A DNA stretch of 64,000 bases from a virus (lineage: Duplodnaviria > Caudoviricetes), in IMG/VR virus record IMGVR_UViG_3300035501_000471; one strand, written 5' to 3'. The first letter of the stretch is position 1. Every line of letters starts with the position of its first letter. Positions 11,178-52,735 of the stretch are shown piece after piece. The notes beneath the pieces are model-generated. The model saw nothing but the letters and a program-made list of their open reading frames with translations. It searched no databases and was not told the DNA's origin. Made by a program: the position numbers and the translations under genes.

Positions 11178-11634
11178 TGATAAAATCTATTGTTTCTTTG
11201 TCACTATTTTCAAATGTTCGACCATAAATTTCGTAAGTCATATCAAGTAATTTCTTTTTAATAGAAGAAACTGATACAAAATCTTTCTCTTTTATGATTT
11301 TCTTAGCATCCTTTACGATTTGTTTAAGAATTTTGATGTCATTTTTAGATATAACTGACAAAAATCCATCATCCTTAAAAGATTTGTTGAATTTAGAAAC
11401 TAATTTCTTGAGGTCTTCATAATTTTGGATTTCAGTTTCATCCGGTTCTTCAATGACATATTCTTCGACAACCACCTTATTAAAATCAACAAAAGTCGTT
11501 AAAGTAGAGACAACCTTATTATCAGACTGTTTAATCAAATGTGAACCAGCACGAGTATCATTTTTACCATATCCTCGGTATTCACATATCATTCTTTTTA
11601 CCAGTTTATTTTTTGAATATTTGTCTTTTACCAT
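11146..11634 (-). CDS. Hypothetical protein
   Basis: 162-aa ORF coupled to the MTase stop via ATGGTAA overlap. Confidence 0.65.
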   Translation of the reverse strand: MVKDKYSKNKLVKRMICEYRGYGKNDTRAGSHLIKQSDNKVVSTLTTFVDFNKVVVEEYVIEEPDETEIQNYEDLKKLVSKFNKSFKDDGFLSVISKNDIKILKQIVKDAKKIIKEKDFVSVSSIKKKLLDMTYEIYGRTFENSDKETIDFINECNHYLLSI

Positions 11635-13277
11635 AATTCTTCGTTTTTTTCTAAGTTCAACCCTTCATCAGCTGGGTAATCTTCTTGTAAATGGTCAACA
11701 TAAATCTGAGCTCGTTCTTGTGGCATGTAATAACTCTCATCAGGTTCATCCTCAAGATAGTCATTGTATTCCGTTTTCAATTTAATCTTCTCCGGAAATT
11801 CATAGTAGGGATTTGGTTCATCATCTGTTTTAAGAATAGAAATCATAAAAATTCGTTCTCTATTTTGAGGAATACCATAATCCTTAGCATTTAACACCTG
11901 ATAGAAATTCACATATCCATAAGACTCCAACTCTTTACACCATTTTTGAAACAAGTGAATGAATTTGTCAGAAACAAGAGCTTTCACATTTTCAAACAAA
12001 AGATATTTAGGTCTTTTCTTAATGATTGTTTTTCGACATTCCCACAAGAGAGATGAACGTGTACCAGAACCTTCAGTACCTCCAAGTTGTAATCCCGCTT
12101 GTGAAAAATCAGTACAATTATGGACAATACAACCATTAGCGGTATATGAATTATCTTTATCAACCTCCATGTTATATACCTCTACTTGACTATCACCACC
12201 AGAGGATATTTGTTTTACAGGACTCCAAAAATAACCATCCTCATAGAAACCATATTTTTCAAGGTCTATCCAACATAATTTCCACTTACCACCATCTTCA
12301 TTAATGATATATGGTTTTTGGTATGACTTCGCAACACACTGAGCTAACTCATATATGAATTTTCTGTTAGTTGAATATATACTACCTTTAATACTATGAT
12401 CCATTAAAGAAAATTCCTCACTTTCAATAATACCATGTAATACTTCTTTCTGAAATTTAATAGGTAGGTTGAGAATGTCACTGGTTAGATGTTTCTCTGA
12501 CTCCGATGAACCAAATGTCTTAAAATAATCTACAACTTTTTCGACATCATATTTCTTAGCCGTGTCAGTCTCTATAAAACTGTAATAATACTCACCAAAT
12601 TCCTTAGCTAATTCAGAGTTATCATTTCCCCAATTTCGACCAAGGAACATACCTAAAACAAACCAGAATGTATCTATCTTAAAATGTGTGTTTAATCCTG
12701 TTACTCTTGGTAATTTGGATTCATTATTGATAGCCACACCTACATAATCAGTAACTTGTAAATCTTGAGCATATTTCCACTTAGGTTTTTTCTTACCCAA
12801 ATTTTCTTTTACATAAAATGGGTGTGTTGGAGTACATTTAATTTCATCAGAGTTGGTTGTTGTGACTTTAATTATAACACCACCATGAGTTTTAGACATA
12901 GGTGCTAAGACCTTACGATATTTGTTCTTATGTGTCAATACCTCATCATCACAAGTAATATCTTCAATACATTTCATACCATTCTTAGTCATAACAAATG
13001 TACCCGCAACAAAACAAGGTGAACTATATGTGAACAAATCAAAATCAGGAACATTATCCCAATCTATCTTACTAATATCACCATAGTTCCTGTCTTTCCA
13101 TTGAGGAAACAGTGCATCATGAGCTTGGATGGCATACTTATCTATCTCACTCCAACCAACAAGGTCATAATCAAAGTCATATTTTTCTTTTAGAGTATTG
13201 AGAGCCATACATTGACTATCATAACCTGAGAAAGCTGTGAATACTCTTAATGGATGTTTCTTGTTAAATTCTACCAT
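11628..13277 (-). CDS. DNA cytosine-C5 methyltransferase, large subunit (motifs I-VIII), intein-containing
   Basis: FSGYDS (I), SEID (II), GDI (III), SP|C (IV, interrupted), ENV (VI), QNRERIF (VIII); motifs IX-X absent. Confidence 0.9.
   Translation of the reverse strand: MVEFNKKHPLRVFTAFSGYDSQCMALNTLKEKYDFDYDLVGWSEIDKYAIQAHDALFPQWKDRNYGDISKIDWDNVPDFDLFTYSSPCFVAGTFVMTKNGMKCIEDITCDDEVLTHKNKYRKVLAPMSKTHGGVIIKVTTTNSDEIKCTPTHPFYVKENLGKKKPKWKYAQDLQVTDYVGVAINNESKLPRVTGLNTHFKIDTFWFVLGMFLGRNWGNDNSELAKEFGEYYYSFIETDTAKKYDVEKVVDYFKTFGSSESEKHLTSDILNLPIKFQKEVLHGIIESEEFSLMDHSIKGSIYSTNRKFIYELAQCVAKSYQKPYIINEDGGKWKLCWIDLEKYGFYEDGYFWSPVKQISSGGDSQVEVYNMEVDKDNSYTANGCIVHNCTDFSQAGLQLGGTEGSGTRSSLLWECRKTIIKKRPKYLLFENVKALVSDKFIHLFQKWCKELESYGYVNFYQVLNAKDYGIPQNRERIFMISILKTDDEPNPYYEFPEKIKLKTEYNDYLEDEPDESYYMPQERAQIYVDHLQEDYPADEGLNLEKNEELW
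12117..13016 (-). mobile_element. 300-aa intein with degenerate LAGLIDADG region, inserted before the catalytic Cys
   Basis: Begins CFVAGT, block B CTPTHPF, ends VYNMEV...ANGCIVHN|C; endonuclease blocks decayed (LGMFLGRN, LHGIIESE). Confidence 0.92.
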
Positions 13278-13495
13278 AAAACGTCATCTTGTTGTTTAGG
13301 TTTATGAATAAATAATTTTTCAAACATATTGGACATACAATTAACAACTATAGAATTACCATACATATTACAAAGTTGAGTATGTGAAATTCCACAGTTG
13401 GTCATTATATCAATATCTTCTTCCTTAACACCCATTAATCTTCCTATTTCTTTGGGTGTTAATTTTCTAATTCGATAATATTTTTTCTTAATCAT
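13271..13495 (-). CDS. C5-MTase small subunit 1 (motifs IX-X only)
   Basis: RIRKLTPKEIGRLMG and YGNSIVVNCM; own promoter-like motif at 13500-13513. Confidence 0.8.
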   Translation of the reverse strand: MIKKKYYRIRKLTPKEIGRLMGVKEEDIDIMTNCGISHTQLCNMYGNSIVVNCMSNMFEKLFIHKPKQQDDVLW

Positions 13496-13513
13496 AATGT
13501 AAAGATAACAAAA

Positions 13514-14047
13514 TTAAAAGAGTGATGTTTCCGGATTGTTAGATTTTTGACAGAATAATTTTTTGAATATCTCTGACATCACATTTACACATATTGAATT
13601 ACCAGCTAACTTTTTACATTGGGTTTTTGGAACTGTATTTAACAAAGTTTCAACGTCATCATCACACACACCCATTAGTTTGAATGTTTCTCGATTGGTC
13701 AATTCCCTAACTTTGTAATTCCTATCCCACACATAATTATCAGTAGAGAATGTGGTTAAGGTATTGGAAAACCCTTGGTCTGTGACATCTAAATATTTAC
13801 CTCTACCAAACTTAATCCCACTGTCACCATATAACCGTCTTAACCTTTTTTCTTCATCAGTTCGTTTTATTTTTAATATCTGAGGTGGTTTTATGTTGTC
13901 ATTAAATATATAAACATTATCACCTTCAACTGTGCAACATATGTTCAATGAATTTTTAAGATATTTCCTTTTCTCAAATTCATCCTTTTTCAAATATAGA
14001 CTGTCATCAACATTATATTCAATTATGTCATCTAAACTTTGTCGCAT
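13514..14047 (-). CDS. C5-MTase small subunit 2 (putative TRD plus motifs IX-X)
   Basis: SNTLTT (TRD TL dipeptide), RELTNRETFKLMG, AGNSICVNVM. Confidence 0.8.
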   Translation of the reverse strand: MRQSLDDIIEYNVDDSLYLKKDEFEKRKYLKNSLNICCTVEGDNVYIFNDNIKPPQILKIKRTDEEKRLRRLYGDSGIKFGRGKYLDVTDQGFSNTLTTFSTDNYVWDRNYKVRELTNRETFKLMGVCDDDVETLLNTVPKTQCKKLAGNSICVNVMSEIFKKLFCQKSNNPETSLF

Positions 14048-14137
14048 GGTCTCACCTCTTTAACTTCCCAACTTCGGTCAAAAATGTTATGGTAAAATAT
14101 CACTTTATATGGTTCTTGACCAACATATATAATCTTA

Positions 14138-14998
14138 CTAAAATAAGGGGACTTCTCCATCTTCTTTTTTCGTTTTTTCTTTCTTGTTTACATTATATGA
14201 TACCTTACCATCATACTTTTCAACTATATTCAACCGTTCCATAATAATCTTATAGTATTCTTCACTGATTTCACTACCAATATATTTTCGATTATTTAGA
14301 ATACACATCTTGGCCGTTGTTCCTGAACCCATAAAAGGATCGTAAACAATATCACCAGCATTACTCCAAGATAATATATGGTCTTGTGCTAACTGTTCGG
14401 GAAAGACCGCTGGATGACCTGTTCTATCTTTTTCACATGATGTAGTATAAGTCCAGATGTTATTCCTCAATGAAAACTCAGGAACGGGTTTTATCTTATT
14501 ATCCCTCTCATCCTTTCCATCTTTACTATAATATGTTAGTTTTCCCCAGTTCGTATGACCAGCCCATTTGTTTGGTTTATCACACAACAAATGTATGTCA
14601 TTCCTAATCTTACCCTTAGTGAAAACAAACATATATTCAAAAATCTGAGTATATCTTTTTGAATCTGGTTTGGCCGGAAATGCTGATGAATTTTTTTGAT
14701 ATATCATAGTATCATGTAACAGAAATCCACAATCCATAAAATAAAGAGCTTGTCTAAATGAAGTTCCTGTTTCTGTTCCACCTATAGTCGCATCACCAAC
14801 TACCCATACTAAAACTCCACCGGGTTTAAGAATACGGTATAATTCATGAGCAAGAGTATCAAATTCAAATGTATATCCATTATAATTCCTCAAAGAATCA
14901 TATGGGGGAGAAGTGACAACCAAATCAACAAAGTTATCACTGATACGTTTACACGTATCGACATTACTCTCATTATATATAGTATTTACTTCAATCAT
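14138..14998 (-). CDS. DNA N4-C/N6-A methyltransferase, beta class
   Basis: TSPPY, HPAVFP, DPFMGSGTT. Confidence 0.92.
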   Translation of the reverse strand: MIEVNTIYNESNVDTCKRISDNFVDLVVTSPPYDSLRNYNGYTFEFDTLAHELYRILKPGGVLVWVVGDATIGGTETGTSFRQALYFMDCGFLLHDTMIYQKNSSAFPAKPDSKRYTQIFEYMFVFTKGKIRNDIHLLCDKPNKWAGHTNWGKLTYYSKDGKDERDNKIKPVPEFSLRNNIWTYTTSCEKDRTGHPAVFPEQLAQDHILSWSNAGDIVYDPFMGSGTTAKMCILNNRKYIGSEISEEYYKIIMERLNIVEKYDGKVSYNVNKKEKTKKEDGEVPLF

Positions 14999-15090
14999 AA
15001 CCTAAACATAACAAAAAAAAGTAGACCATTTGTTATATCATATAATATACTTAGAATTTTTTGTTATCTTTAAAGTAAATTAATTATAAA

Positions 15091-15822
15091 ATGAAGAAGA
15101 TAGTAACTTTTATATCAGACACACATGGTTTTACTACTAAACTAAATGAATTGATCAATAAGTCTTTACAAACAGAAAATGTTGATCATGGAGATATTAT
15201 TATATGTAGTGGTGACTGTATGACATCAGGTTATCACACTATGGAATTGACTACTTTTTTGTCATGGTTCTCTAAGTTACCATATACATATAAAGTGTTT
15301 ACACCCGGTAATCATGATAGATATTTAGAATCTATTGGGGTTGATATGTCTAAGTCTATTTTTGAAACTCCTGAATACTTTGATATGGGTGTGAGATATG
15401 TTCAAAATGAATTACTTGAACTTGATTTTGATGGAGAAATTCTAAAATTATATGGAACTGGCGATCAACCTAAGTTTTGTAACTGGGCATTTAATAGGGA
15501 TTCCGAAGAATTAATTTTTAGTTATTCTAATATTCCAGATGGTATAGATATTTTGATTACTCATTGTCCTCCGTTTGGTATTTTGGACTGTTCTCATGTT
15601 CCTAATCCATATCGAAATACTACTGGTGAAGAACATTTGGGGAGTGAGGAACTATTGGATCGATTAAATACTATAATAAATCCACCTAAATATCACGTGT
15701 TTGGACATATTCATGGTGATGGTGGTAAAATTATTGAACAAAGTGGTATTACTTTTATCAATGCATCTGTTTGTGATGAAAGTTATAGACCTAAAAATGA
15801 AATAAAAACAGTGAGAATTTGA
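15091..15822 (+). CDS. Calcineurin-like metallophosphoesterase
   Basis: SDTHG, SGD, GNHD, THCPP, GHIH. Confidence 0.9.
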   Translation: MKKIVTFISDTHGFTTKLNELINKSLQTENVDHGDIIICSGDCMTSGYHTMELTTFLSWFSKLPYTYKVFTPGNHDRYLESIGVDMSKSIFETPEYFDMGVRYVQNELLELDFDGEILKLYGTGDQPKFCNWAFNRDSEELIFSYSNIPDGIDILITHCPPFGILDCSHVPNPYRNTTGEEHLGSEELLDRLNTIINPPKYHVFGHIHGDGGKIIEQSGITFINASVCDESYRPKNEIKTVRI

Positions 15823-15840
15823 TTTTTCTCACTGTTTTTT
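15804..15840. terminator. Bidirectional terminator
   Basis: aaaaacagtgagaa...ttctcactgttttt. Confidence 0.7.
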
Positions 15841-15846
15841 ATTATA

Positions 15847-18003
15847 TTAAACAAATGCATAATAAAAGTCTGGGGCACTATCTTTTATATATTGTTGAGT
15901 TGGTGTAAATTTTTCTCCTTCTTTCTTACCCCATAAAGAGGTTACGGTTAGTCGCTGATATACAGTTGATGACAATGCAGAATAATTATTTGCATAAAGT
16001 TCGTATACATTTCTATAAGTGAAATTATTACTTGATGGTGGTATTAATTGAATACATCCTGATTTAAATACATGGTTTGTATATGTTGAATATATATACA
16101 CGTACCCTCCAGATAAACCAGTATGTACTGTAACATTACGTATGGCATACATAGGTGTTGATGTATTATTAGAATTAGAATAATTACCCAATCCAGTATA
16201 GCATATATCATCATCAAATTTACAAAAAGAGATATTACTACCTTCTTTAAGGTTATTTTTCACCGTAGTCCATGAAGTATATTTAGTTATTGTACTATCA
16301 GAATTTATGTCATGATTAACAAATCCTAACCAATCATATATACAATTTTTCCCAAACGTGTTAGAGTAGCAATATTGTCCAAACGTGTTATAGTGGCAAG
16401 ATTGTCCAAACGTGTTATAGTAGCAATATTGTCCAAACGTGTTATAGTAGCAATATTGTCCAAACGTGTTAGAGTAGCAATATTGTCCAAACGTGTTATA
16501 GCGGCAATCTTGTCCAAACGTGTTAGAGTAGCAAGATTGTCCAAACGTGTTAGAGTAGCAATATTGTCCAAACGTGTTAGAGTAGCAATATTGTCCAAAC
16601 GTGTTATAGTAGCAAGATTGTCCAAACGTGTTATAGTAGCAATATTGTCCAAACGTGTTATAGTAGCAAGATTGTCCAAACGTGTTATAGTAGCAATATT
16701 GTCCAAACGTGTTAGAGTAGCAATATTGTCCAAACGTGTTATAGTAGCAAGATTGTCCAAACGTGTTATAGCGGCAATCTTGTCCAAACGTGTTAGAGTA
16801 GCAATAATTACCTAATGTCATTCCATAACAATCTTCTTCTATCACATTATCATGTACACTATATAAAAATCCTAAAAACGTTTCGGGTGAAGTATCTTCA
16901 TTAGTGTCATCTTGTGCATATGCGATACCCGTAGCATCACTACATCTATTGTCATATTTAGTAAATACAATATTATTTAATTTTAAAACATTGTATACAA
17001 CATCATCATCATAACATACAAGAACATGATATGGTTTTATAATATTATTATATGGGCAAGACGTTTCATACTCACCATATGCACCATATGAGGTACCATA
17101 TATTTCATCCTCATATATATGGTTCATATTTTGTGATATTTGTCTTTCATATAAAGATGCATCCGAAAACATAAATTGTGAATCAGTAAAACAATTATTA
17201 AATGTGTAACAATAAGTCCACATTGATGTATCATATTTAAATATATAATTGTTTTTATGTGCAAAAAAAGGATATCTACCGGGTGAACAATTTGTAGTAA
17301 ACTTGGACCAATCATTACCAAATTCATCATCTAATGTGTTACTACCATATATGTCATCACAAAACATATCAGTAGGTAATAATATTTTTTCAGTAGGTTT
17401 AGTATAATTACAACCAGTTACTTTATATCGTTTAAATAATATATTTTTAAAATCATATGGTGCCTCATTACCAAATTCATCTTTCATGTAATAAATAACA
17501 CCTTTACCAGCACTATCTGCCCAGTAAAATCTGTTGGTGTCATTATCTAAACAATATTTTAATTCCCAAGCTTCTAATTTTGAATTATTAAAATACTCTA
17601 CACCAACATTATATATTGTATATATTTCAGGTTTATAATTATAATATCTTGTATTAAATTTAACTGTGGGTGTCGAGTTATAAATCACCCCGGACATATA
17701 ATGTGATTGTATTGCTTTTGCGTCTTCTGAAATCGTGTTTCTTGATAATGCCGTTACAATTATATCAAATTTATGACCTGCTGAAGCCGTTTCTTCCTGA
17801 GAAGTTGTTGTTACATAATCAATTATACGATATTGTTTACCGGGTGTTAGTTTACTACTATCTCTTAAATTAACCAGATCATTATATAAAATTTCTCGAA
17901 TACGCTCTTCTTTATATTTACAATTATCTAAATCAAAATATTGTTGGGCAACACTTACTAATGTATTACTTCCATCAATTATTGTTAATGTTGGATTAGC
18001 CAT
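15847..18003 (-). CDS. Putative tail fibre/adhesin with 9-aa NTFGQxCxx repeats
   Basis: 718-aa ORF: N-terminal LTPGKQYRIIDY/DEFGNEAPYDFKNI region plus tandem repeats of likely beta-solenoid type. Confidence 0.65.
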   Translation of the reverse strand: MANPTLTIIDGSNTLVSVAQQYFDLDNCKYKEERIREILYNDLVNLRDSSKLTPGKQYRIIDYVTTTSQEETASAGHKFDIIVTALSRNTISEDAKAIQSHYMSGVIYNSTPTVKFNTRYYNYKPEIYTIYNVGVEYFNNSKLEAWELKYCLDNDTNRFYWADSAGKGVIYYMKDEFGNEAPYDFKNILFKRYKVTGCNYTKPTEKILLPTDMFCDDIYGSNTLDDEFGNDWSKFTTNCSPGRYPFFAHKNNYIFKYDTSMWTYCYTFNNCFTDSQFMFSDASLYERQISQNMNHIYEDEIYGTSYGAYGEYETSCPYNNIIKPYHVLVCYDDDVVYNVLKLNNIVFTKYDNRCSDATGIAYAQDDTNEDTSPETFLGFLYSVHDNVIEEDCYGMTLGNYCYSNTFGQDCRYNTFGQSCYYNTFGQYCYSNTFGQYCYYNTFGQSCYYNTFGQYCYYNTFGQSCYYNTFGQYCYSNTFGQYCYSNTFGQSCYSNTFGQDCRYNTFGQYCYSNTFGQYCYYNTFGQYCYYNTFGQSCHYNTFGQYCYSNTFGKNCIYDWLGFVNHDINSDSTITKYTSWTTVKNNLKEGSNISFCKFDDDICYTGLGNYSNSNNTSTPMYAIRNVTVHTGLSGGYVYIYSTYTNHVFKSGCIQLIPPSSNNFTYRNVYELYANNYSALSSTVYQRLTVTSLWGKKEGEKFTPTQQYIKDSAPDFYYAFV
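16352..16806. repeat. 27-bp coding tandem repeat, about 17 units
   Basis: Unit tgtccaaacgtgttatagtagcaatat, varying at only a few positions. Confidence 0.95.
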
Positions 18004-18028
18004 AGGGAAATAATTTATGTTATTATAT

Positions 18029-19606
18029 TTAATTATCAGTTTTTATAATAATTGGTGATAATTTATTGACTGTACCTAATTGGGTTTTATCAATTCCATA
18101 TTGGTTTCCATTAACACCAATTACACCACTAACATTCAAAACACCTGTATAAAAATTAGATGTATCTTCTGGTGGTACACAAAGTTCAATTAAACCTTTA
18201 TTCACAAGAATTACTTCTAAAATACAAATACTTTTAATATTAATAGTTGAATCTGTGGATAATATAAATGTTTCACTTTCACAATTTTCAAAATCTAAGA
18301 TGTATTGGTAAGTTCCATCTTCGATATCTACTGATTGTATATTATCTTCATTAGTTAGGGTTATTACACCTTCTGATATTTCATTTTCATATAGATTAAC
18401 TATTATTCTTAAATTAGTATCGACTGAACCCAATTTAAGAGAAATATCACCATTTGTTATATTAATCCACCCATCATTTTGAAAATAAACTTGATTAACA
18501 TTTGTGAAATCAGTTATATAATCATTAAGTTCTATTTCAGTTTCTTCTTTTTCTTTTACTAATATATTATCTTCAGGATATTGTATAATGAAGTCATCTA
18601 TTGTTGGTTCCAGTTCATTAGATATATTAACTGAATCCTCAACTAATATTTTATCATTGGTACAATTTGTGAGAAGTAACATTTCTCCATTAGTAAAAAG
18701 ACTATCCTCTACGAAATATTCTCGTTTTGGATAGATATGTCCATCACTCCAACTAATGAAATTGTATGTATATTCAATACTTTCATCCTTTACATCACTT
18801 ACAACATTTGGACAACATTCAACAACAAAATGATAACCTTCTTTAACGGTTGCATAGTCATTGACCTTATCGGATAACATTGTAGTTTTTTCATCAAACG
18901 TAACTAAGAAATAAGAGTGACGGTTTTTGAAATTAATTTTTATATTATATTCATTTCTTACTCTATAAATGGCATATAAAGTAATATCACTGTCAATAGT
19001 TAATGTGATTTCTCTATCCTTTGATGTATATAAATCATCTAAGTCATAATTATCACAATCATCAGAAATACTATCAAGAGACAACCAACCAACAAATATA
19101 TGTGTTGGTGTATCATAAGCTCTCAAAGTTGTCACATCACCACCATAGAAATATCCTACTTTACCTGTTATAGATGGTTCGATTTCATTAAATTCAGTAT
19201 CTCTGTATAGAACATCGAGTTTATAAGTTTCACGATTATTGAATGAAATACAACCTTTATCTTTTATTTTCTCTGTTTGTAAAGAAGTTATATCATCTGG
19301 CCAAGTATAGGTTTTATAAGGACAACCGAAGACACCGGATAGTTCTAAACTCAATCCTTCCAGTTTAGATAAATCCAGAGCATCTTGATTTTCGATATCA
19401 GACACATACATTTGAAAACATACATTCTGACCTCTTGTTATATTTTTCAGACATGGGACATATAATGAATAACCTTCTTGACAATATGAGGATGAAGAAT
19501 CACATCCACTACCACCAAGGTTTAATATATTTTGAGTAATTGATACACCATTTACTAAGGTTGTAGATGATGAATAATTACCATTTGTATATGTATATGT
19601 TGACAT
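18029..19606 (-). CDS. Putative structural protein
   Basis: 525 aa, beta-rich (FVGW/FISWSDG motifs); CATAAATA at 19633-19640. Confidence 0.6.
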   Translation of the reverse strand: MSTYTYTNGNYSSSTTLVNGVSITQNILNLGGSGCDSSSSYCQEGYSLYVPCLKNITRGQNVCFQMYVSDIENQDALDLSKLEGLSLELSGVFGCPYKTYTWPDDITSLQTEKIKDKGCISFNNRETYKLDVLYRDTEFNEIEPSITGKVGYFYGGDVTTLRAYDTPTHIFVGWLSLDSISDDCDNYDLDDLYTSKDREITLTIDSDITLYAIYRVRNEYNIKINFKNRHSYFLVTFDEKTTMLSDKVNDYATVKEGYHFVVECCPNVVSDVKDESIEYTYNFISWSDGHIYPKREYFVEDSLFTNGEMLLLTNCTNDKILVEDSVNISNELEPTIDDFIIQYPEDNILVKEKEETEIELNDYITDFTNVNQVYFQNDGWINITNGDISLKLGSVDTNLRIIVNLYENEISEGVITLTNEDNIQSVDIEDGTYQYILDFENCESETFILSTDSTINIKSICILEVILVNKGLIELCVPPEDTSNFYTGVLNVSGVIGVNGNQYGIDKTQLGTVNKLSPIIIKTDN

Positions 19607-19632
19607 CTAAATAGTTATCTCTAAGTTTACTA

Positions 19633-19658
19633 TATTTATGAAAAAATTACCATAAATA
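19633..19658. promoter_or_regulatory. Divergent pair of late-promoter-like CATAAATA boxes (representative of about 16 copies)
   Basis: Also at 4426, 6318, 21614, 31286, 32402, 34936, 38556, 42977, 43658, 43695, 43711, 46885, 51550, 56702 and 61415, oriented toward the downstream gene; compare the T4 late box TATAAATA. Confidence 0.8.
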
Positions 19659-19681
19659 AAATAGACAATAATAAAATTGAA

Positions 19682-36241: not shown

Positions 36242-37944
36242 TATAATCCTGCTAATGGACTACCTCCTCCATCATCATCACCTCCATCATCATCTTCCTT
36301 TTTCTTTTCGGGTTTGAATTTGTCTTTGGGTACACCATTCAATATCTGAGCGATGTCTTCTTGTTTATACCCTTCTTTCTTCAAGGCCTTTTCATCTTTA
36401 TATCTTTGATTTTGTTTCAATTCCTCATCAGTCATATCAAAGTATTTTCTAATGACGAAATCAATATCAAAATAAGGTGTTTCATTACCCTCATCATCTT
36501 GAACAGTAAGAGTTGACATAATAGATGAAATAAAGTCTGATTGTTTTTGAAGATATTCCATCTGTTTGTTCTTCTCAAATAAAGAGTCAGAGTTATATTC
36601 AAGTCCAAGATTGACACGATAATTAATATCTGTCATAATGAACTTATATTTCAAACACATCTGGATATAAAGAGGTTTGATAAGTATCTCTGCGAAGATT
36701 GATCTTAATCTCTTGATGAATTTAGAGAAACGAATTTCTTCACGAGCGATACCTTCCGCAGACATCGAGTATTGACCTTCACCTTGGTCTTTGTCAAATC
36801 GAGTTAAAGGAATTTTGGAAGCTTGCCTTAGTTTATCTCTAAAATATTTCAATGCTTCTGTATCTGAAATCTCCGGACCGTCACCTCCTAATGGTTGGAT
36901 TTGAGGAGTTTCACCACCTTCAGAAGCCATGAAAATATCTTTATAGAATTGAAGCATTGGTCTACCATTGGTTTTAATTTCACCACTGTCCCAATCGAAA
37001 TCAACCAATTCCTTATAGTTATTCATGGCCTTCGCTAATGTTTGACGACCTCTTGGAGATTGAACTGAACCAACAGGAATGATGTACTGTGTCTTATATG
37101 ATGAATTAGTAACAGCCCAAATTATTCTTGTGGCTTCCATTGTTCTAAGGATGTTAAATGAACGAACAAGTCTTTCAACATAAGAAATCCTTGAAACTGC
37201 GTCAGCCTTTGCATATGACAGGTAAATAATTTGAGAATCATATAATATTCTATCTTGTGTTGTTTGACCATTCACATTTGTCTGTTGATTGACAAACCAC
37301 ACCTTTTCATTAGTGTTAGGATCAATACCCGGTGTCAAACTTGCAGGGTCTAATTCAACAAAACCAATTATCTCAGTTTGTTCCGCATTATACACAATTT
37401 CAAAAGCCAAGAAACCATCTATCAACCATTTACGGAAATAATCAGTAGCTTGAACAGTGTCATAAAAACCAAAGTAATTATACAACTTATTATATTCTTC
37501 CGTAAATTCATTCAAAAGGTCTTGGTCAACTTTGTAATTTAACTTAACTGTGGCGAATTTGTTAGCATCATCAAACACAATAGTTTCATCACATATAATG
37601 TCCAAGATTTCTTCAATTTCATCTTGAAGAGCAAACTTTCTTAGTTGTTCTTTTTTCTTTTGATAATTTTCTTCAGTTAAATTAAAATAACCCTTACCTA
37701 AAGATGGATCAGTAGATGACATACGGGCAAACAAAACCTGAACATTCTCATCATAAATCGAACCCACTTGTCCATTTTGAGGATTGGATTGTAGGTTCTG
37801 TTGATTCAATGTCAAGTCCTGTGACCTTACATTTCTAATCACATCATCCTTGTAGTTCATTCCAAATCGTGAAATCTGTCTTAACCTACGGATTACTGGA
37901 TTAGGATTATTTACATTATTTCTTAAATTTGTAAAACCTGCCAT
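36241..37944 (-). CDS. Portal protein (T4 gp20-like)
   Basis: FRKWLIDG, YFRDKLRQASKIPLTRF, IAREEIRFSKFIKRLR. Confidence 0.92.
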   Translation of the reverse strand: MAGFTNLRNNVNNPNPVIRRLRQISRFGMNYKDDVIRNVRSQDLTLNQQNLQSNPQNGQVGSIYDENVQVLFARMSSTDPSLGKGYFNLTEENYQKKKEQLRKFALQDEIEEILDIICDETIVFDDANKFATVKLNYKVDQDLLNEFTEEYNKLYNYFGFYDTVQATDYFRKWLIDGFLAFEIVYNAEQTEIIGFVELDPASLTPGIDPNTNEKVWFVNQQTNVNGQTTQDRILYDSQIIYLSYAKADAVSRISYVERLVRSFNILRTMEATRIIWAVTNSSYKTQYIIPVGSVQSPRGRQTLAKAMNNYKELVDFDWDSGEIKTNGRPMLQFYKDIFMASEGGETPQIQPLGGDGPEISDTEALKYFRDKLRQASKIPLTRFDKDQGEGQYSMSAEGIAREEIRFSKFIKRLRSIFAEILIKPLYIQMCLKYKFIMTDINYRVNLGLEYNSDSLFEKNKQMEYLQKQSDFISSIMSTLTVQDDEGNETPYFDIDFVIRKYFDMTDEELKQNQRYKDEKALKKEGYKQEDIAQILNGVPKDKFKPEKKKEDDDGGDDDGGGSPLAGL

Positions 37945-43631: not shown

Positions 43632-43778
43632 TTTTTCAAATTTTATTATATTTAATGTATTTATGGATTTTTTTATTTCCAAATTGTCTTAATCTATTTA
43701 TGAAAAATCTCATAAATAAATTATGAGATTGAAGTGTGTGTCATTTTGACCACCCAATAATCAATATAAAAATTCTTT

Positions 43779-44507: not shown

Positions 44508-44510
44508 TAT

Positions 44511-45089: not shown

Positions 45090-45129
45090 AAATAAAGGAG
45101 AGGATTTTTAAGTTCCTCTCCTTTTTAAT

Positions 45130-46854
45130 TTATTTCTTTATATATTCTGAAAATGTCATCACTCGAAATGATTCACTCACATTATTATCTAAAATTTCTG
45201 GAATATTCTTCTGTCCATTTTTATTTGCTGAGTGAACAAAATACTTAGGGATAGGTAAATCATTTTCTTTACAATATTTAACCAACCACTTAGCACAGTC
45301 TTCACCATCTGGGTAGTCATTACCTTTTTCAATTCCATTACCTTTCTTCAAATCTCTATCAAATGAAATAAATTCAGGTAGTCCATTAGTTTCAATATAA
45401 TCTCTGAACTCATCTAAATTTTTAACCCATTTGAATTTTATATTTTTATATTTAGTATGGAGGTCATCATAGAATTTTTTGTTTCGTTGATATGCTCCAC
45501 TTTTACTTTCTTTACTCAAATATACTTCTGGGTTTCTTTCATCATCGAGCCATAGAATTTTCAAAGAATCATCATCGGTTAAGTCAGTTGTTTCCTTGTC
45601 TATTTTATCTATAGTTTTTTCAACAGTTGTAACTTCTACCTTTTCCGGTTCTGGATTTTTTAGTTCTTCTTTCTTATTTACTTTTTTTGGTTTCAGTTCA
45701 TCTTTAAGTGATTCGTGATGACCATAAACAGTTTTGGGAATAACCGCTAATGTAATAGGAAGAATTGATTTTACTCCATATTTTTGAAGTTCCAAGCAAA
45801 TGTCATCAAGGGTAGCTCCTGAAGAAATATTATCATCAAAAATTACAACATTCTTACCTTTGAGTTTTTGTTGGATACCATTTAAGTTAGGATTTATTTC
45901 AAACAAACCCTCAATAGAACGTCTTTTACTATCTTCCAATGACTTTATTTCAAAATTCTTAGCACGACCATCAGAACCTATTGTTTTATCTTTACCTCTA
46001 CGACCTTTTCTCAAAATCTTAGCTTGGTCTTGAAGATTTGCTAATAGTTCCTCTTTTTGTTTGAACTCTCTTGTAGGTCTTCCTTGTTTTCGATTAGCCT
46101 TTGTGTATAGAATTTCATCTTTCAAGTCATCAATCTTCAATCGTAGTTCGTACAAATCAGCATCTTTTTTCCAATGTTCAATATCTTGTTGTAGTTGGTA
46201 AATGTCCTTATCAGTCAATCCAACTTCATGAGCTTGTTCATAATTGATATATACCTTACGAATGTTTTTCGTCATTAGGTCAGGGATACATTTAATACCC
46301 GGTGAATCTTTATAACCTCTTAATATATATCCAACCATTTCTTTATTAAATGCTGATGAACTTTGAGGATATGTAATAATGTCAATAGGATTTTTCTTCA
46401 ATAGTTGACGAATATATAATGATGTACGTTTCATAAATTTGTCAATACTATCAAAATCAATATTACGATTTTCAAGTTCAGAATATTTGGTGGGGTGTTT
46501 TAGGGCCTTGGAAGCTCTCATGTCAGACAGTCTATAAAGATTGTATGATGTGACTCCACTTTTCTTTAATGGTACTTCAACAAAATCTAACTTTTTGGTT
46601 TCTGGATTAAAAATTCTGGTTGATGTTGAATCTGTATCATTTTTACCGGGCACGAACTTAAATGTTCTATCACCAGATTTTGAACCATGTGAAAAACCTT
46701 CTTCAAGTTCATCATCAACACACAACTCATCATAACCCATTTCATGTTCAGCATCCATTAACATTTGGATAAAATCAATGGTAGATATTCGATTATCTTC
46801 AAATTTCATATCTTTATCTTGACCTAATTGGAAATCTTCAAAAGATTTAATCAT
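45130..46854 (-). CDS. Phosphoribosyltransferase-fold protein fused to a receiver-like (cyclic-phosphate-processing REC-type) domain
   Basis: PQSSS and VVIFDDNISSGATL; C-terminal LWLDDER...ISFDRDL...G.DCAKWL...VHSAN; CATAAATA at 46885-46892. Confidence 0.72.
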   Translation of the reverse strand: MIKSFEDFQLGQDKDMKFEDNRISTIDFIQMLMDAEHEMGYDELCVDDELEEGFSHGSKSGDRTFKFVPGKNDTDSTSTRIFNPETKKLDFVEVPLKKSGVTSYNLYRLSDMRASKALKHPTKYSELENRNIDFDSIDKFMKRTSLYIRQLLKKNPIDIITYPQSSSAFNKEMVGYILRGYKDSPGIKCIPDLMTKNIRKVYINYEQAHEVGLTDKDIYQLQQDIEHWKKDADLYELRLKIDDLKDEILYTKANRKQGRPTREFKQKEELLANLQDQAKILRKGRRGKDKTIGSDGRAKNFEIKSLEDSKRRSIEGLFEINPNLNGIQQKLKGKNVVIFDDNISSGATLDDICLELQKYGVKSILPITLAVIPKTVYGHHESLKDELKPKKVNKKEELKNPEPEKVEVTTVEKTIDKIDKETTDLTDDDSLKILWLDDERNPEVYLSKESKSGAYQRNKKFYDDLHTKYKNIKFKWVKNLDEFRDYIETNGLPEFISFDRDLKKGNGIEKGNDYPDGEDCAKWLVKYCKENDLPIPKYFVHSANKNGQKNIPEILDNNVSESFRVMTFSEYIKK

Positions 46855-46897
46855 TTTATAAAGTTGATTATTTAGTTTATAGTTTATTTATGTTGTT

Positions 46898-47668
46898 TTA
46901 CCACAGGTTGTTAGTTTCTTTGAGGTAAAACTCTTTCTTAACTCGTTCGACTGAAATGTCATAGTAGTTTTTACTTATTTCAGTTCCTATGTATTTTCTG
47001 TCTAATCGTTCACAAACAGTACAAGTTGTTCCTACTCCTGAAAATGGATCATAAACGACATCATTTTTGAATGTGAATAGTTTTAATATTCTTTCAACTA
47101 ATTCTTCAGGAAACATAGCAGGATGACCAAACTCTTTCATCCTTCTTTCAGGTGATATATTCCACTTAGCGGTTGTCCATTTCTTAAACTCATCAGGAAC
47201 TATACTTATGTTTTCTTTATCACCAATATGTTTAGGATTATTTTTGAAGAAATACTCGATATATTCCCATGTACTTTTTAGATATGGTTTTGACGGACTA
47301 CACCAACTACCCCAAGCAGTAACAGGACAATTATAATTATTTTTTTCCCATATTATTTCACTCCCCCAAGTAAGACCACACTTAGTTAAAATGTTAGATA
47401 CTATATGATGTGTTGGATAATTCACTGTAAATATTGGTTGAACATTCACAAAAATTCGACCATCATCTTTCAAAATCCGGGCACATTCTTCAAATACTTT
47501 AGTCAACCATTCTTCATATTGGACTGGATTAAATGTGTCATCAAAACTATCATACTCCTTTTCAAACATATATGGTGGACTGGTAATAATACAATCTACA
47601 AAATTATCAGGTAGAGTTTTCATAAATTCCAAACAGTCCTCATTATATATTTTATTCAACTCTACCAT
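46898..47668 (-). CDS. DNA N4-C/N6-A methyltransferase, beta class
   Basis: TSPPY, HPAMFP, DPFSGVGTT. Confidence 0.92.
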   Translation of the reverse strand: MVELNKIYNEDCLEFMKTLPDNFVDCIITSPPYMFEKEYDSFDDTFNPVQYEEWLTKVFEECARILKDDGRIFVNVQPIFTVNYPTHHIVSNILTKCGLTWGSEIIWEKNNYNCPVTAWGSWCSPSKPYLKSTWEYIEYFFKNNPKHIGDKENISIVPDEFKKWTTAKWNISPERRMKEFGHPAMFPEELVERILKLFTFKNDVVYDPFSGVGTTCTVCERLDRKYIGTEISKNYYDISVERVKKEFYLKETNNLW

Positions 47669-48444
47669 AATTGATTTCCTTTATCATGTAGAAGAACCTC
47701 TATTCTTTTGTTAGCCAAGTTAAAGTATTCTTCTGTTATTTCAAATCCTATAAATTGTCTATTTGTGTTAATACAAGCTACCGCAGTTGTTCCACTTCCC
47801 ATACAGTTATCTAAGACTACTTCATTTTCATTTGTATAGGTCTTAACCAACCATTCAATTAATTCAACAGGTTTTTGTGTAGGGTGTTCTTCTCCATTAC
47901 ATAGGTGTTCTTTTTTGATTTTGACAACTGAACGAGGGAACTTATATTCACTTATTATAGGATTAATTACTCTGTCAAAATTACCATAACATTGATTTTT
48001 ATCTGTGTGTTCACCATTACCTATTGGATGATTCTTTCTATCAGGGGCATATTCCATTTGAGGATTATATGTACCAAGTTTTTTATAGAATACCATAATG
48101 TCCTCATGACTTCTCATAGGCATCCGTTTAGCATTTAAGAACCCCGTAGGTCTATCCTTTTCCCAGATTAAATTATATCTCCACAATGATGGGTTAGATG
48201 TCATTAAATTGGCTGAGAACATCCCCTGACCAAATAACACAATGACACCCTTATCTTTAATTATCCTTTCATATTGTTCCCATAATTGGTCAAAAGGTAT
48301 AACTGAATCCCACTTGGCGGATTTATTTCCTTTATTTAAGACACCATAAGGTAAATCACAACAAATCATATCAATGGACTTATCAGGTATTTTTGACATT
48401 CCAATGATACAATCTTCATTATATATTTTATTTAACTCTACCAT
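47662..48444 (-). CDS. DNA N6-A methyltransferase, beta class
   Basis: CDLPY, HPTQKP, DNCMGSGTT. Confidence 0.92.
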   Translation of the reverse strand: MVELNKIYNEDCIIGMSKIPDKSIDMICCDLPYGVLNKGNKSAKWDSVIPFDQLWEQYERIIKDKGVIVLFGQGMFSANLMTSNPSLWRYNLIWEKDRPTGFLNAKRMPMRSHEDIMVFYKKLGTYNPQMEYAPDRKNHPIGNGEHTDKNQCYGNFDRVINPIISEYKFPRSVVKIKKEHLCNGEEHPTQKPVELIEWLVKTYTNENEVVLDNCMGSGTTAVACINTNRQFIGFEITEEYFNLANKRIEVLLHDKGNQLW

Positions 48445-49319
48445 AAATTTGTTTCTTCATCATAACTTAAATAGAGGGATTCATAAACCATTGCATTTGA
48501 ATCCTTACCTATTGTCCTTTTGAAAGATGAATTACCAGATTTGATATATAAGTGATGATTATAACATTCAGTTGGAACATTACAAGTATTATCCACGTTA
48601 CCTGATTTTCCATCAAAAGACATAATGAACTTTATGTTATTTTGTTTTAATTTACTTAGTTCAGAAAAAAATTTGTCAAAGTCCAATCCACCAAAATACA
48701 TTCCCTTTGTGTTAAAATAAGGAGGATCCAGATATAGGAAATCATTTATCTTAGCCTGTGAAAATATATCTTCATATGAACAATGTCTGAACTCAATATC
48801 AACTTTATTTAACTTCTCAGACCATTCTTGTAAAATTGGTTGGAGATTATCAGGTGTTATGCCGTTTCTTGTTAAATGAAAAGAGTTATTAAATTCACCA
48901 TTTTTATTATATCTGGGCATACCATTAGTAGTTGTCCTCATAATAAAAAAGAAAATAAATGGATTGTGAGTTTTATTATATTCATCACGTTTCTGTTCAA
49001 AATATTTTCTTTTTATATCAACATCAGAAGTGGAATTTAGTTCAGTCCACATCTTTTTATATTGAGACATTATTTCATCCGGACAATTTTTTATTTTGTT
49101 CCATAGTGAAATCAAGTCACCATTTAAGTCAGAACAGACAATCTTTTTTACTGATATATCACTGTCTAACAACATTCTCATCATTGAACAACCACCACAA
49201 AATGGTTCATAATAAGTATCAATTTGTTGAGGAAAATATTGTATAATTTCCTTGGCTTGACTTCGTTTACTACCAGACCACTTTATGATTGGTTGAAATT
49301 TACCACAGACTTTGTTCAT
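48438..49319 (-). CDS. Dam-family (alpha class) N6-A methyltransferase
   Basis: KWSGSK, YEPFCGG, SDLN, YLDPPY. Confidence 0.92.
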   Translation of the reverse strand: MNKVCGKFQPIIKWSGSKRSQAKEIIQYFPQQIDTYYEPFCGGCSMMRMLLDSDISVKKIVCSDLNGDLISLWNKIKNCPDEIMSQYKKMWTELNSTSDVDIKRKYFEQKRDEYNKTHNPFIFFFIMRTTTNGMPRYNKNGEFNNSFHLTRNGITPDNLQPILQEWSEKLNKVDIEFRHCSYEDIFSQAKINDFLYLDPPYFNTKGMYFGGLDFDKFFSELSKLKQNNIKFIMSFDGKSGNVDNTCNVPTECYNHHLYIKSGNSSFKRTIGKDSNAMVYESLYLSYDEETNLW

Positions 49320-50148
49320 CTTTATGGTTTTTTAATGTTAGACCTTTGATATTTTCATAAAGATATTTGTATAACTTCATGACTGATATTTTCTTACTTG
49401 AAATTGAATTAGCATAGTTTCTTATTACATCAAAATCAAGTAATTTCAACATCTCTGATTTAATTCTTTCATCAGTACAATAGAAATAAACTTCCTGTGC
49501 AAACTCACCTATATGGGATGGTCTTTTTCCTAAACAACCATTTCCCCAATTACACATAGAATAACAAAAATCAGGTGAAATATCTTTGTTTTTACCTGTC
49601 ATATAATCACCATTCTTTCTACGATGTTCAATGATAGTTATTTCATTTAATTCATAGTTGGGTTTACTATTTAACTTACCTGATTTTGGTCGACGATAAA
49701 TGTTAAAACAACAATGTAAATCTCTATCTGTATAATGAGCTAATCCTAAATCCTCACTATAAATCAAATCAAATTTATATAACTTAATATCATTGTTGTA
49801 ACATGAAATTGGTAAAATGAAAGCAACATAATCACCTTCTTCCACACATTTGTTATAGAAATCTTGTATCAATTTATTGTGGACACCAAAAGGAGGATTA
49901 CCAATGAATAATCGACCTTTCTTATATGTTAAATTTAGTTTGAGAAAATCAGCTTGTATTATGTTTTCAGATTCAGGAACAATGTCATAAGCGATGCATC
50001 CTTCTATTTGATTAGAGAAAGAACCATCACCAGCACTTGGTTCGATTACTTCTGTTATGTTGTCTTTACCTATAATGTCAAAGGTTTTTTTAATTAACCT
50101 TTTAGATAGGTCAACAGAAGTATAGTATTTGTCATTATTAATCTTCAT
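49300..50148 (-). CDS. DNA N6-A methyltransferase, gamma-like
   Basis: DKYYT, IEPSAGDGSF, QADFL, GNPPF, AFILP. Confidence 0.85.
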   Translation of the reverse strand: MKINNDKYYTSVDLSKRLIKKTFDIIGKDNITEVIEPSAGDGSFSNQIEGCIAYDIVPESENIIQADFLKLNLTYKKGRLFIGNPPFGVHNKLIQDFYNKCVEEGDYVAFILPISCYNNDIKLYKFDLIYSEDLGLAHYTDRDLHCCFNIYRRPKSGKLNSKPNYELNEITIIEHRRKNGDYMTGKNKDISPDFCYSMCNWGNGCLGKRPSHIGEFAQEVYFYCTDERIKSEMLKLLDFDVIRNYANSISSKKISVMKLYKYLYENIKGLTLKNHKDEQSLW

Positions 50149-50488
50149 CCTTTATTAGTAAATTTTTCAACTTCTCATTAAACAAAGCGTCAGCACCTTT
50201 TTCTTTATATATATCAATAAGTTTCTTTCGGGTTTCTTTATATGACTTTTTCCATTCCTCTGATGCTTTGATTTTCTTTTGAAGTCTCAATTTTTTTTCC
50301 AATCGCCTCAAGTAATCAACAGCACTTCCTTCTTTTTTTCCTTCGATATTTCTAACTCGATTAAGTACATCTAAAACAGCGTGTGTTATACCCTGTTCTG
50401 ATGTTTTATATTCATCATCAATCTCCACACCATCTTCTAATGGTTCAGAGATTACATTAGTGCTGTTAATTAATTTATCTAATTTCAT
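50138..50488 (-). CDS. Chimeric mini-protein: VWA-gene N-terminus fused to peptidase-gene C-terminus
   Basis: Near-identical to 54574-54749 and 54824-54966; intact frame; promoter-like motif 4 nt upstream. Confidence 0.7.
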   Translation of the reverse strand: MKLDKLINSTNVISEPLEDGVEIDDEYKTSEQGITHAVLDVLNRVRNIEGKKEGSAVDYLRRLEKKLRLQKKIKASEEWKKSYKETRKKLIDIYKEKGADALFNEKLKNLLIKDED

Positions 50489-50640
50489 AACTTAAAAATA
50501 ACAAAAGGCTGATGAAAACCTCACCAACCTTTAATACATTATATAAATTTAACTATATCAAATTCCAAAAATTATCATCAACAAATTTTTGAAACTCACT
50601 ATCTAATGGTTTCATATCTTTTAATATTGTTGAGATGAAA

Positions 50641-51528
50641 TCAGACAAAATCCTCTGGTCTGACTCCATACATTTCATAGTAATCTGCAACTCCACATTC
50701 GAGGTCATCTTCACTATATGTAGTTTTTATATCTTTGAAATCAAGTCCAATTTCTTCATCGGTAACTTCACCATACATTTCAAGGTCATCATTATCACAA
50801 TATATAGTTAATTTACTAAATCGAATTTCACCATCACACCAATATTCACCATAACTTCTACGTGAACCAGAAGTCCACACATCATATTCTGAATTTATAA
50901 GACAATTACCTACTGATAATTCTATTTCATCTTCAAATTCAGTCGTTTCATCCATATCCTCACGATATTCAAAATCAAAATTTAGATGATTTTCAATAAT
51001 ATTATAAAGTTCTTGAATATCATCTTCTGTCAATGTCTTTTTCATCCACTCTACAAAACGACGATGTTCAATAACATCTCTTTTTTCTTGATGTTTTTTA
51101 TGGATATCATCATAGTTATGGATTTCCTTATTAGATTTTCCTCTATATCTATCCATATGGTGGTCTTTATCTTGACCGATATGACGTTTATTCCTTTTTT
51201 GTATCAGTTTTTTTACTTCTTCACCATTATCTTTCCACCAAACAGAGAAGATTTCCATATTACCTATAACAACACGATAACCATCTTGTAAGTCTATACA
51301 AAATGTTGCAGGATTTTTGTCATCACCATTATCATACTTTTCACAATACTCATGGAAATCTTTAACAACATCTATAATATCATCATCATGAATATCATAC
51401 AAAAGAGGTTTATCCCACTCATATTTTGGTAAACCATGTTGTTTTATAATGGCTCTCAATTTTCCACTTTGAAAACCTTCATTTAGTGAATTTAGTTTTA
51501 AAAAATCAGAAAAACTTAAAACGTTCAT
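50641..51528 (-). CDS. Hypothetical late protein, candidate internal head protein
   Basis: MNVLSFSDFLKLNSLNEG; CATAAATA at 51550-51557. Confidence 0.65.
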   Translation of the reverse strand: MNVLSFSDFLKLNSLNEGFQSGKLRAIIKQHGLPKYEWDKPLLYDIHDDDIIDVVKDFHEYCEKYDNGDDKNPATFCIDLQDGYRVVIGNMEIFSVWWKDNGEEVKKLIQKRNKRHIGQDKDHHMDRYRGKSNKEIHNYDDIHKKHQEKRDVIEHRRFVEWMKKTLTEDDIQELYNIIENHLNFDFEYREDMDETTEFEDEIELSVGNCLINSEYDVWTSGSRRSYGEYWCDGEIRFSKLTIYCDNDDLEMYGEVTDEEIGLDFKDIKTTYSEDDLECGVADYYEMYGVRPEDFV

Positions 51529-51562
51529 TTCAATAAGTTTATTTTACCATATTTATGAAAAT

Positions 51563-52735
51563 TTACCAAAGTTTTTCTTCATCTGACTTTTTAACTTCTT
51601 TTTTATCAGGTATTTCAGTTAAACTATTATCTATGGCATACTCTATTCTGGTCTTGGCTATTGGTAAGTAATCTTCAGTTATTTCAATACCTATGTAGTT
51701 ATAATTAGCATCTCTATCATAATTCTCACTCATCACTGCTTTTCCTGTTGAACCAGAACCATTAAAACAATCCAGCACAGTTCCACCTTTAGGTGTGACT
51801 AATCTAACCAAGTATTTCATCAAAGAACAAGGTTTACAGGTTGGGTGAAAATTCTTACGGGCAACTCCGCTTCTATTAAACTGATTATTGGCTGATTCTA
51901 ATTCAGGATTTCTATCACTTTTGACAACCAATTCAAAATCATCTAAACCCTCATCTCTATCCCTACGAGAAGCCTTGGCACAGTAAAAATACCTATATTC
52001 TTCGTTAGGAAATCCTTTACATACTTCATTGTCATCTTCATCATAAGTGAGTATTACATTAGCTGGAAATCTACCTTCATCTATTGTTCGTTCACCTGTC
52101 ATTGGTTTCCATCCACCATCATAAGCTTGCCATTTTTCTATTGATTCATCTGTCATCCTATTATAAGCATTCATATTAAACTCATAATTGGATTTATCTT
52201 TTTCACCTGTAATTGGTACTCGACATTCTTCAATATTAAGGGCACCAACATTGTTATTATACATATTATCAATCAGAGAACCTTCAAATGGTTTTCTGGC
52301 GATAATAATAGGTTCATATGCTGGTTTTAGAGCGTTTCCATACTTATATAATTCACTATCGACTGGATGACCTAATTTCTTTTCTAACATTTTACCAACA
52401 TTAGAACTTTTAGGCATACCACTACCATATAACCACATAATAGTATCTCTTATTTCAAAGCCTGCATCTTCAATCGCACACACCATTCTATGAAATGTTC
52501 GAGTGGCACAGAAAGCTACCAAATATCCACCGGGTTTCAATACTTTAAGACAAGTTTTCCAAGTTTCGGGGTTGAGAGTAATTCCTGTATTATCCCATTT
52601 ATTAGACAGGAAATTTAGTTCATATGGTGGATCACAACAAATGGATGTTATACTATTTTCTTCTATAACATCCAACATATCCATCATGTCACCATTATAT
52701 AATTTATAGTTTTTTCCTTCTGAGTATAACTTCAT
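51563..52735 (-). CDS. DNA methyltransferase, beta class
   Basis: CDPPY, HPTCKP, DCFNGSGSTG. Confidence 0.92.
   Translation of the reverse strand: MKLYSEGKNYKLYNGDMMDMLDVIEENSITSICCDPPYELNFLSNKWDNTGITLNPETWKTCLKVLKPGGYLVAFCATRTFHRMVCAIEDAGFEIRDTIMWLYGSGMPKSSNVGKMLEKKLGHPVDSELYKYGNALKPAYEPIIIARKPFEGSLIDNMYNNNVGALNIEECRVPITGEKDKSNYEFNMNAYNRMTDESIEKWQAYDGGWKPMTGERTIDEGRFPANVILTYDEDDNEVCKGFPNEEYRYFYCAKASRRDRDEGLDDFELVVKSDRNPELESANNQFNRSGVARKNFHPTCKPCSLMKYLVRLVTPKGGTVLDCFNGSGSTGKAVMSENYDRDANYNYIGIEITEDYLPIAKTRIEYAIDNSLTEIPDKKEVKKSDEEKLW

Follow-up and report, generated by a model that had tools for sequence, protein, structure and literature searches.

Here we describe a short peptide ending shared by the DNA methyltransferases (MTases) of an uncultured giant T4-like myovirus, as found in a 64-kb stretch of its genome with a guanine-cytosine (GC) content of about 30% (the window, hereafter). 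Nine MTase polypeptides in the window, which together span four enzyme classes, end in Leu-Trp or Leu-Phe (L[WF]), and the replicative DNA polymerase of the same phage ends likewise. We consider it rather probable that this tail is the clamp anchor of the clade, copied onto acquired MTases, which would thereby travel with sliding clamps on replicating DNA. The original prediction, drawn from the window alone, had proposed that such tails dock on a clamp, and comparative evidence now supports it, namely the enrichment of the tail on MTases, its distribution among homologues, the GLW end of the polymerase and the presence of a clamp encoded by the phage.

Among the products of the window are a gp23-type capsid protein, a tail sheath protein and a topoisomerase II; gene calls on copies of this DNA add portal and PhoH, and a 326,518-bp metagenome contig carries the same sequence. 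IMG/VR contains no identical DNA, and searches of the phage and IMG/VR collections with the window and with an exact 28-mer were negative. Relatives in IMG/VR share 72-76% capsid identity and lie on contigs of 233-412 kb, and four of them, of 248-412 kb, were taken whole (G001, G003, G004 and G005). C-terminal ends were tabulated over the window, these four contigs and eight more loci. The polymerase and the clamp of the window's own genome were reached by walking beyond the right end of the window, into a stretch referred to as L124.

Nine methyltransferase polypeptides share an ending

The ten MTase polypeptides of the window are the following:

11628-13277, minus strand: N-terminal half of a C5 MTase (motifs I-VIII), matching PF00145 (profile positions 1-203), PF14890 and Hint; tail EKNEELW.
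13271-13495, minus strand: C-terminal piece of a C5 MTase, 74 residues (motifs IX-X only), matching PF00145 (profile positions 271-322); tail QQDDVLW.
13514-14047, minus strand: C-terminal half of a C5 MTase, 177 residues (target recognition domain, TRD, and motifs IX-X), matching PF00145 (profile positions 189-323); tail NPETSLF.
14138-14998, minus strand: beta-class N4/N6 MTase (PF01555, E-value 1.7e-46; C-terminal alignment), with a linker of about 31 residues before the tail DGEVPLF.
46898-47668, minus strand: beta-class MTase (PF01555, E-value 2e-47); tail KETNNLW, encoded by CTG TGG TAA at its end, without a start-codon overlap.
47662-48444, minus strand: beta-class MTase (PF01555, E-value 1e-31); tail DKGNQLW, within a TTATGGTAG overlap.
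48438-49319, minus strand: alpha-class (D12/Dam) MTase (PF02086, E-value 1.6e-33); seven residues, DEETNLW, appended after the fold end ESLYLSY.
49300-50148, minus strand: gamma-class N6-adenine MTase (DKYYT, EPSxGxGxF, NPPF; phrog_799/5172, invariant motif columns in family alignment A5); tail KDEQSLW.
51563-52735, minus strand: beta-class MTase with an insertion, 390 residues (PF01555, E-value 2.3e-31); long polar tail KKSDEEKLW, encoded by CTT TGG TAA at its end, without an overlap.
61426-62280, minus strand: core Dam orthologue (PF02086; family table and alignment), untagged, ending ESLYLNF.

All nine tails read exactly as they had been listed in the original prediction, and the Dam paralogue at 61426, which had been named there as lacking the tag, does end without it (LYLNF). 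Pfam matches above the cut-offs support eight of the nine tailed MTases (PF00145 for three, PF01555 for four and PF02086 for one). The ninth, at 49300-50148, has no Pfam match, and in its family alignment DKYYT, EPSxGxGxF and NPP(F) are invariant and stand in gamma-class order. The nine had also been presented as MTases of different origin: they do cover four classes (C5, alpha, beta and gamma), but three of them are probably pieces of one split C5 enzyme, and their independence was to that extent overstated.

Among window open reading frames (ORFs) of at least 50 residues, an L[WF] end is found on nine of the ten MTase polypeptides and on none of the 43 others (Fisher p = 2.3e-9), with 0.18 such ends expected from composition; the earlier remark that genes other than MTases lack the ending holds for all 43. 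Each of the related contigs has 11-16 L[WF] ends, against about 2 expected. Tabulating C-terminal dipeptides across genomes had been suggested as a check, and over the window, the four contigs and the eight loci the tail is concentrated on MTases; beyond the MTases, the families that keep it consistently are few and conserved, and the replicative polymerase is among them. About a dozen related phage contigs of 230-410 kb keep the tail.

The sequence rule is simple. Position -2 is Leu in all 80 non-redundant tails, position -1 is Phe in 41 and Trp in 39, and position -5 is Asp or Glu in 56%, while the other positions vary. LW and LF are swapped between close orthologues, and the Leu codons differ. 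As far as these sequences can tell, selection is on the last two residues of the tail only.

A shared ending could also have arisen without any function, either as a by-product of translational-coupling overlaps, given that TTATGGTAA encodes both L-W-stop and M-V, or by shared descent of paralogues. Four of the seven LW ends in the window do lie in TTATGGTA[AG] overlaps with the ATG-GTA start of the next gene (11628, 13271, 47662 and 48438), and several of the beta-class MTases are paralogues. However, the original prediction had pointed to two LW ends that no ATG overlap forces (46898 and 51563), and a third, at 49300, can be added to them. Across the window and the four relatives, start overlaps hold only 11 of 60 L[WF] tails; LF ends are impossible from start overlaps; and the Leu of the tails uses six codons (TTA, TTG, CTG, CTT, CTC and CTA). 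Furthermore, the polymerase and four distinct MTase families bear the tail, which is appended beyond the fold, and chance would supply only about 2 of the 11-16 ends per genome. An origin as coding artefact or by shared descent is contradicted by these observations, and we hold it to be extremely improbable.

The tail extends beyond the fold

The tails reach 7-31 residues past the ends of untagged paralogues and of homologues outside the clade, the closest of which end where the fold ends. In the Dam family, the core orthologue is untagged in every relative, ending ESLY(L/V)N, and serves as a natural control, while the second paralogue runs 7-10 residues further to LW or LF. The closest homologues in cultured phages, which share about 50% identity and belong to Clostridium phage phiCD211 and Geobacillus virus E3, have ESLYLNY and ESLYINV as their last residues, and the DEETNLW of the tagged window Dam starts exactly where they stop. 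No polymerase-like tail was seen on the core Dam of the cultured RB49-like phage GEC-3S. In the gamma class, 21 of the 26 closest homologues (at least 68% identity) carry an extension of 10-15 residues to LW or LF, and more distant homologues end at NIEGI(E/K). In the beta class, 13 of 18 clade members end in L[WF], against no LW and 13 LF ends among 150 outside homologues, which are representatives of 50%-identity clusters from all sources (P0121-P0270). Homologues outside the clade, which had been proposed as the comparison to make, are thus mostly without the tail in the beta class, in Dam and among distant gamma-class enzymes. Eight of the 13 LF ends outside the clade read QxxLF, like the bacterial beta-clamp-binding pentapeptide, and clamp-type tails on MTases may be widespread beyond the phages described here.

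The four tailed MTase families (C5, alpha, beta and gamma) fall apart in family comparisons, with no mutual match. On the strength of these alignments, the tail is an independent addition to each of the four, made as an extension beyond the fold. Outgroup T4-like phages have canonical polymerase tails and are without PF01555 MTases. In the one tailed protein that was modelled, the tail region has a low predicted local distance difference test (pLDDT) score.

The polymerase carries the same ending, and the phage encodes a clamp

The gp43-type polymerase ends GLW in all four relatives taken whole and at four further loci, and the C-terminal subunit of the window genome's own polymerase (L124:914-2389) ends FESGLW. 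When aligned with T4 gp43, GLW follows the last conserved helix and stands at the place of SLDFLFG, where an outgroup T4-like phage has DLFDELF. The question of how the phage polymerase ends, raised together with the docking proposal, is thus answered: here and in every relative it ends GLW, where T4 gp43 has its clamp-binding tail. The window genome encodes its polymerase as two separate pieces (L124:1-2389, some 25.8-28.2 kb past the window's right end), with a DUF7487 gene directly before the 491-residue C-terminal subunit; the relatives have a single polymerase of about 977 residues.

The candidate clamp is a 286-residue protein (L124:10001-10861), encoded some 17 kb to the right of the window. 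Searches by sequence, with PF02916 and phrog_223 in five relatives and with T4 gp45 in phmmer, found no clamp, and the protein was recognized only via position leads and folding. Neither Pfam nor PHROG matches it, and its homologues, of which there are more than 200, are labelled 'hypothetical'. Its AlphaFold2 model has a pLDDT of 88.4, and Foldseek matched it to PCNA structures with probability 1.00 and an E-value of about 1e-13; as modelled, the phage encodes its own PCNA-fold sliding clamp. Among deposited phages, a tblastn search with the clamp found no counterpart, and the clade therefore has no cultured member there. Three relatives (G001, G004 and G005) have a gp44-type clamp loader (phrog_168, E-value 8.5e-62). 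In G001, G003 and G005 the gene order is polymerase, a tailed 254-residue protein and clamp; in G004 the clamp gene lies within the cluster of tagged MTases, and an ATP-dependent protease (phrog_4871) adjoins the clamp loader. Co-folding of three clamp copies (alignment A4) with residues 341-390 of the MTase at 51563-52735 gave scores of 0.41, 0.19 and 0.28 (median 0.28, under the mark of 0.32, and without controls), which we count neither for nor against docking. Around the clamp gene lies an array of six paralogous proteins of 480-507 residues (L124:2423-9873 and 10941-12434).

Three further protein families, A1-A3, keep the L-F/L-W end in four of four genomes. A1 (194 residues; G001 57846-58430) adjoins the polymerase; A2 (254 residues; G001 61930-62694; alignments A2/A6) lies between polymerase and clamp; and A3 (154-169 residues; G001 37230-37739) is encoded directly downstream of rnh, near the place of dsbA and gp33 in T4, and ends in an acidic linker followed by LF in four of four genomes. 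Comparison of A1 and A3 with T4 gp55 and gp33 by hhalign was negative, and an atlas search with A1 was uninformative. The model of A2 is poor (pLDDT 64) and gave only weak matches to the MTase CamA; a type I M protein is a further weak MTase-like match of A2. We also considered MetK as a client of the tail and rejected it. This S-adenosylmethionine (SAM) synthetase-like protein (L124:13154-13966, 270 residues) has the GLW end only in this genome (EWGLW) and ends GLI in the relatives (EWGLI or SWGLI), and LW is therefore probably part of the fold end here and not a tag.

What the tail is likely to bind

Under the reading that we favour, [D/E]-x-x-L-[W/F]-COOH would be a short linear docking peptide common to the polymerase and most of the phage's MTases, and its likeliest partner would be the phage's own trimeric PCNA/gp45-fold clamp of 286 residues. 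With clamps loaded on replicating phage DNA, MTases with many different specificities would move along the new duplex, which would be methylated during or right after its synthesis, and the benefit would lie in progeny DNA that is guarded from restriction. We infer all three parts of this proposal: the binding of the tail to the clamp, the coupling of methylation to replication and the purpose of protection from restriction.

Several observations weigh against it. The tail is not the canonical (S/T)LDFL of T4, nor a PCNA-interacting peptide (PIP) box, nor QL[SD]LF, and its likeness to the beta-clamp pentapeptide of bacteria is at least as great as that to the T4 peptide. Some MTases of the clade have no tail, namely the core Dam, a second split C5 set and five of 18 beta-class enzymes. 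The gp55-like late sigma factor of the relatives ends PFDLYNL, which is hydrophobic but not L[WF], and therefore not every expected clamp client has the same ending. Finally, the tailed families A1-A3 gave no Pfam match, no informative PHROG match (for A1 and A3 of G004 and A2 of G001) and no informative result in PDB profile searches.

The likeness to the beta-clamp pentapeptide means that the host clamp could be the partner. More generally, the tail might dock on another hub, either the DnaN beta-clamp of the host or another replisome protein of the phage, such as its single-stranded DNA-binding protein (SSB) or one of the tailed families beside the polymerase; we regard this as unlikely, if worth serious thought. 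The pattern [DE]-hydrophobic-small-L-[FW] is close to the bacterial pentapeptide, and the QxxLF ends on unrelated beta-class MTases (eight of the 13 LF ends among 150) suggest that beta-clamp-type tails occur on MTases elsewhere. Additionally, the tails DDIPLW and PEIPLF recall DDDIPF, the tip of SSB. On the other hand, a T4-type polymerase works with its own clamp, with the C-terminal tail being the known clamp anchor in T4 and RB69, and this phage encodes both clamp and loader. Many clients with one tail fit a clamp that serves as a tool-belt, whereas in SSB systems it is the hub that carries the tail, and the gp32 homologues of these phages have other ends.

Another possibility, which we judge very unlikely, is a role of the tail as a signal for degradation or timing, read at the C-terminus by a phage Lon-like ATP-dependent protease or by host ClpXP, that limits the lifetime of MTases and polymerase. 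Hydrophobic residues that lie exposed at the C-terminus behind a flexible linker are a typical feature of degrons, and in G004 the phrog_4871 protease is encoded beside the clamp loader. Nevertheless, the polymerase has the same ending exactly where T4-family polymerases have their clamp anchor, there is no apparent reason for a degron to be shared only by enzymes that act on DNA, and position -1 is kept aromatic, whereas known ssrA-type degrons end in small residues.

A probable split C5 methyltransferase with a tail on every piece

Pfam profile coverage marks the three tailed polypeptides at 11628-14047 as probable pieces of one split C5 MTase: the N-terminal half covers positions 1-203 of PF00145, and the C-terminal pieces complement it with 189-323 and 271-322. 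The N-terminal half is interrupted by an intein of about 300 residues (residues ~87-387), while its orthologues in relatives are intein-less, 245-248 residues long, and end ELW, TLW or GLW. Both C-terminal pieces, of 177 and 74 residues, are encoded upstream of the N-terminal half. Orthologues of the shorter one (13271-13495) in G001 and G005 have 72-73 residues and end ITLW, and the family of the 177-residue piece has a (P/S)LF end in four of four members. In relatives, the alternative C-terminal pieces number as many as three (177, 112 and 73 residues).

Two known systems offer themselves for comparison, the split C5 MTase M.AquI and the multispecific C5 MTases of Bacillus phages. The likeness to these systems lies in the placing of motifs I-VIII and of the TRD with motifs IX-X on separate polypeptides and in the several alternative TRD-bearing pieces of this clade (177, 112 and 73-74 residues); the differences are that the C-terminal pieces lie upstream of the N-terminal half, that the N-terminal half holds an intein and that every piece carries the predicted docking tail. 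One could imagine the trimeric clamp as more than a tether, namely as a scaffold on which a split enzyme is put together in several combinations: a tailed N-terminal half and two or three alternative tailed C-terminal pieces, seated in adjacent pockets of the same ring, would join into C5 MTases that differ in specificity and act on new DNA. In a broader form of the same idea, any DNA-modifying enzyme that a phage acquires would be linked to the replisome once it had been given a duplicate of the clamp anchor of that phage's polymerase. We consider this extension decidedly unlikely as it stands.

Relation to known clamp-binding peptides

In T4, gp33 and gp55 bind the gp45 clamp via C-terminal LDFL motifs (PMC9690074). 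The tails described here resemble those of gp43, gp33 and gp55 of T4 and RB69 in being hydrophobic peptides at the extreme C-terminus, placed after a flexible linker on unrelated proteins of a T4-type phage; the gp43-type polymerase has the homologous end, and a trimeric-type clamp and a gp44-type loader are encoded. They differ in sequence, x-x-L-[W/F]-COOH and not (S/T)LDFL(F/Y/L) (T4 gp43, gp55 and gp33 read SLDFLFG, SLDFLY... and TLDFLL), and in their bearers, which are mainly DNA MTases and not known gp45 clients; moreover, the clamp is too diverged for PF02916 and phrog_223.

The QL[S/D]LF peptide of bacteria (Pol II, IV, V, delta and MutS, among others) is a pentapeptide, often C-terminal, that ends in L-F with the same spacing as the consensus of this clade. 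However, Gln is not among the six commonest residues at position -5 here, Trp is as frequent as Phe at the end (39 of 80), and the phage clamp has the PCNA fold and not that of a DnaN-type dimer. The PIP box, Qxx[LIM]xx[FY][FY], is not matched, as the tail ends in only one aromatic residue and Gln is not conserved in it.

Dnmt1 binds PCNA (PMC9690074), and this is the counterpart in eukaryotes, an MTase with a clamp-binding linear motif and new DNA that is methylated at the fork (PMC9690074); in our phage, the binding is predicted. DNMT1 is one enzyme, whose PIP box is internal and N-terminal, whereas here a C-terminal tail anchored by a dipeptide is found on up to nine polypeptides from four MTase classes, and the likely purpose is protection from restriction and not epigenetic inheritance. 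We found no paper on clamp-docked MTases of phages or bacteria. Clamp-binding terminal peptides as such are known, and what appears to be new is the class of clients, the MTases, and the sequence.

If the clamp-anchor reading is correct, counter-restriction methylation would be coupled to replication by a simple, transferable address tag that copies the clamp anchor of the polymerase. This would explain how many orphan MTases can protect progeny DNA despite a fast replisome, would allow the clamp clients of uncultured phages to be predicted by a sequence rule, and would constitute a parallel to DNMT1-PCNA in a virus of prokaryotes. Leu-Trp-COOH after an acidic linker would also be a very short candidate for a portable clamp-recruitment tag.

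Shared promoter motif and neighbouring genes

A promoter-like motif of 13 bp, TTTGTTATNTTTA, has 11 copies in the window, where 0.14 would be expected, each just upstream of a gene start (5282, 6300, 10785, 13500, 15003, 15060, 21587, 29469, 39814, 50493 and 52757). Four of these copies stand ahead of MTase genes or operons:

13500-13512: promoter-like motif copy ahead of 13271-13495.
15003-15015: promoter-like motif copy ahead of 14138-14998.
50493-50505, minus strand: promoter-like motif TTTGTTATTTTTA ahead of the operon running from 50488 to 46898.
52757-52769: promoter-like motif copy ahead of 51563-52735.

The motif is common to the MTase operons and to the topoisomerase II and thymidylate-synthase-like genes, and in L124 it precedes the clamp, metK and gp47 genes. 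Its distribution points to a shared promoter class of MTase and clamp genes, probably an early or middle one.

The MTase operon is flanked by two large HNH-like paralogues (52781-54766 and 54769-56679; 661 and 636 residues) and by a 116-residue fragment (50138-50488) with up to 82% local identity to them, which suggests recent duplication or mobile-endonuclease activity around the MTase cluster. An IS605 OrfB/TnpB-type gene of 413 residues (L120:15254-16495) lies between the uvsX-like recombinase and helicase genes, and the ORF of the DnaB/gp41-type helicase (window 62746-63951, minus strand; L120:17567-18730) has at its start the C-terminal portion of a splicing domain of intein type (PF14890, residues 111-152), followed by DnaB_C. 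The helicase ORF overlaps an upstream ORF of 387 residues, and the arrangement may represent a split or degenerate intein.

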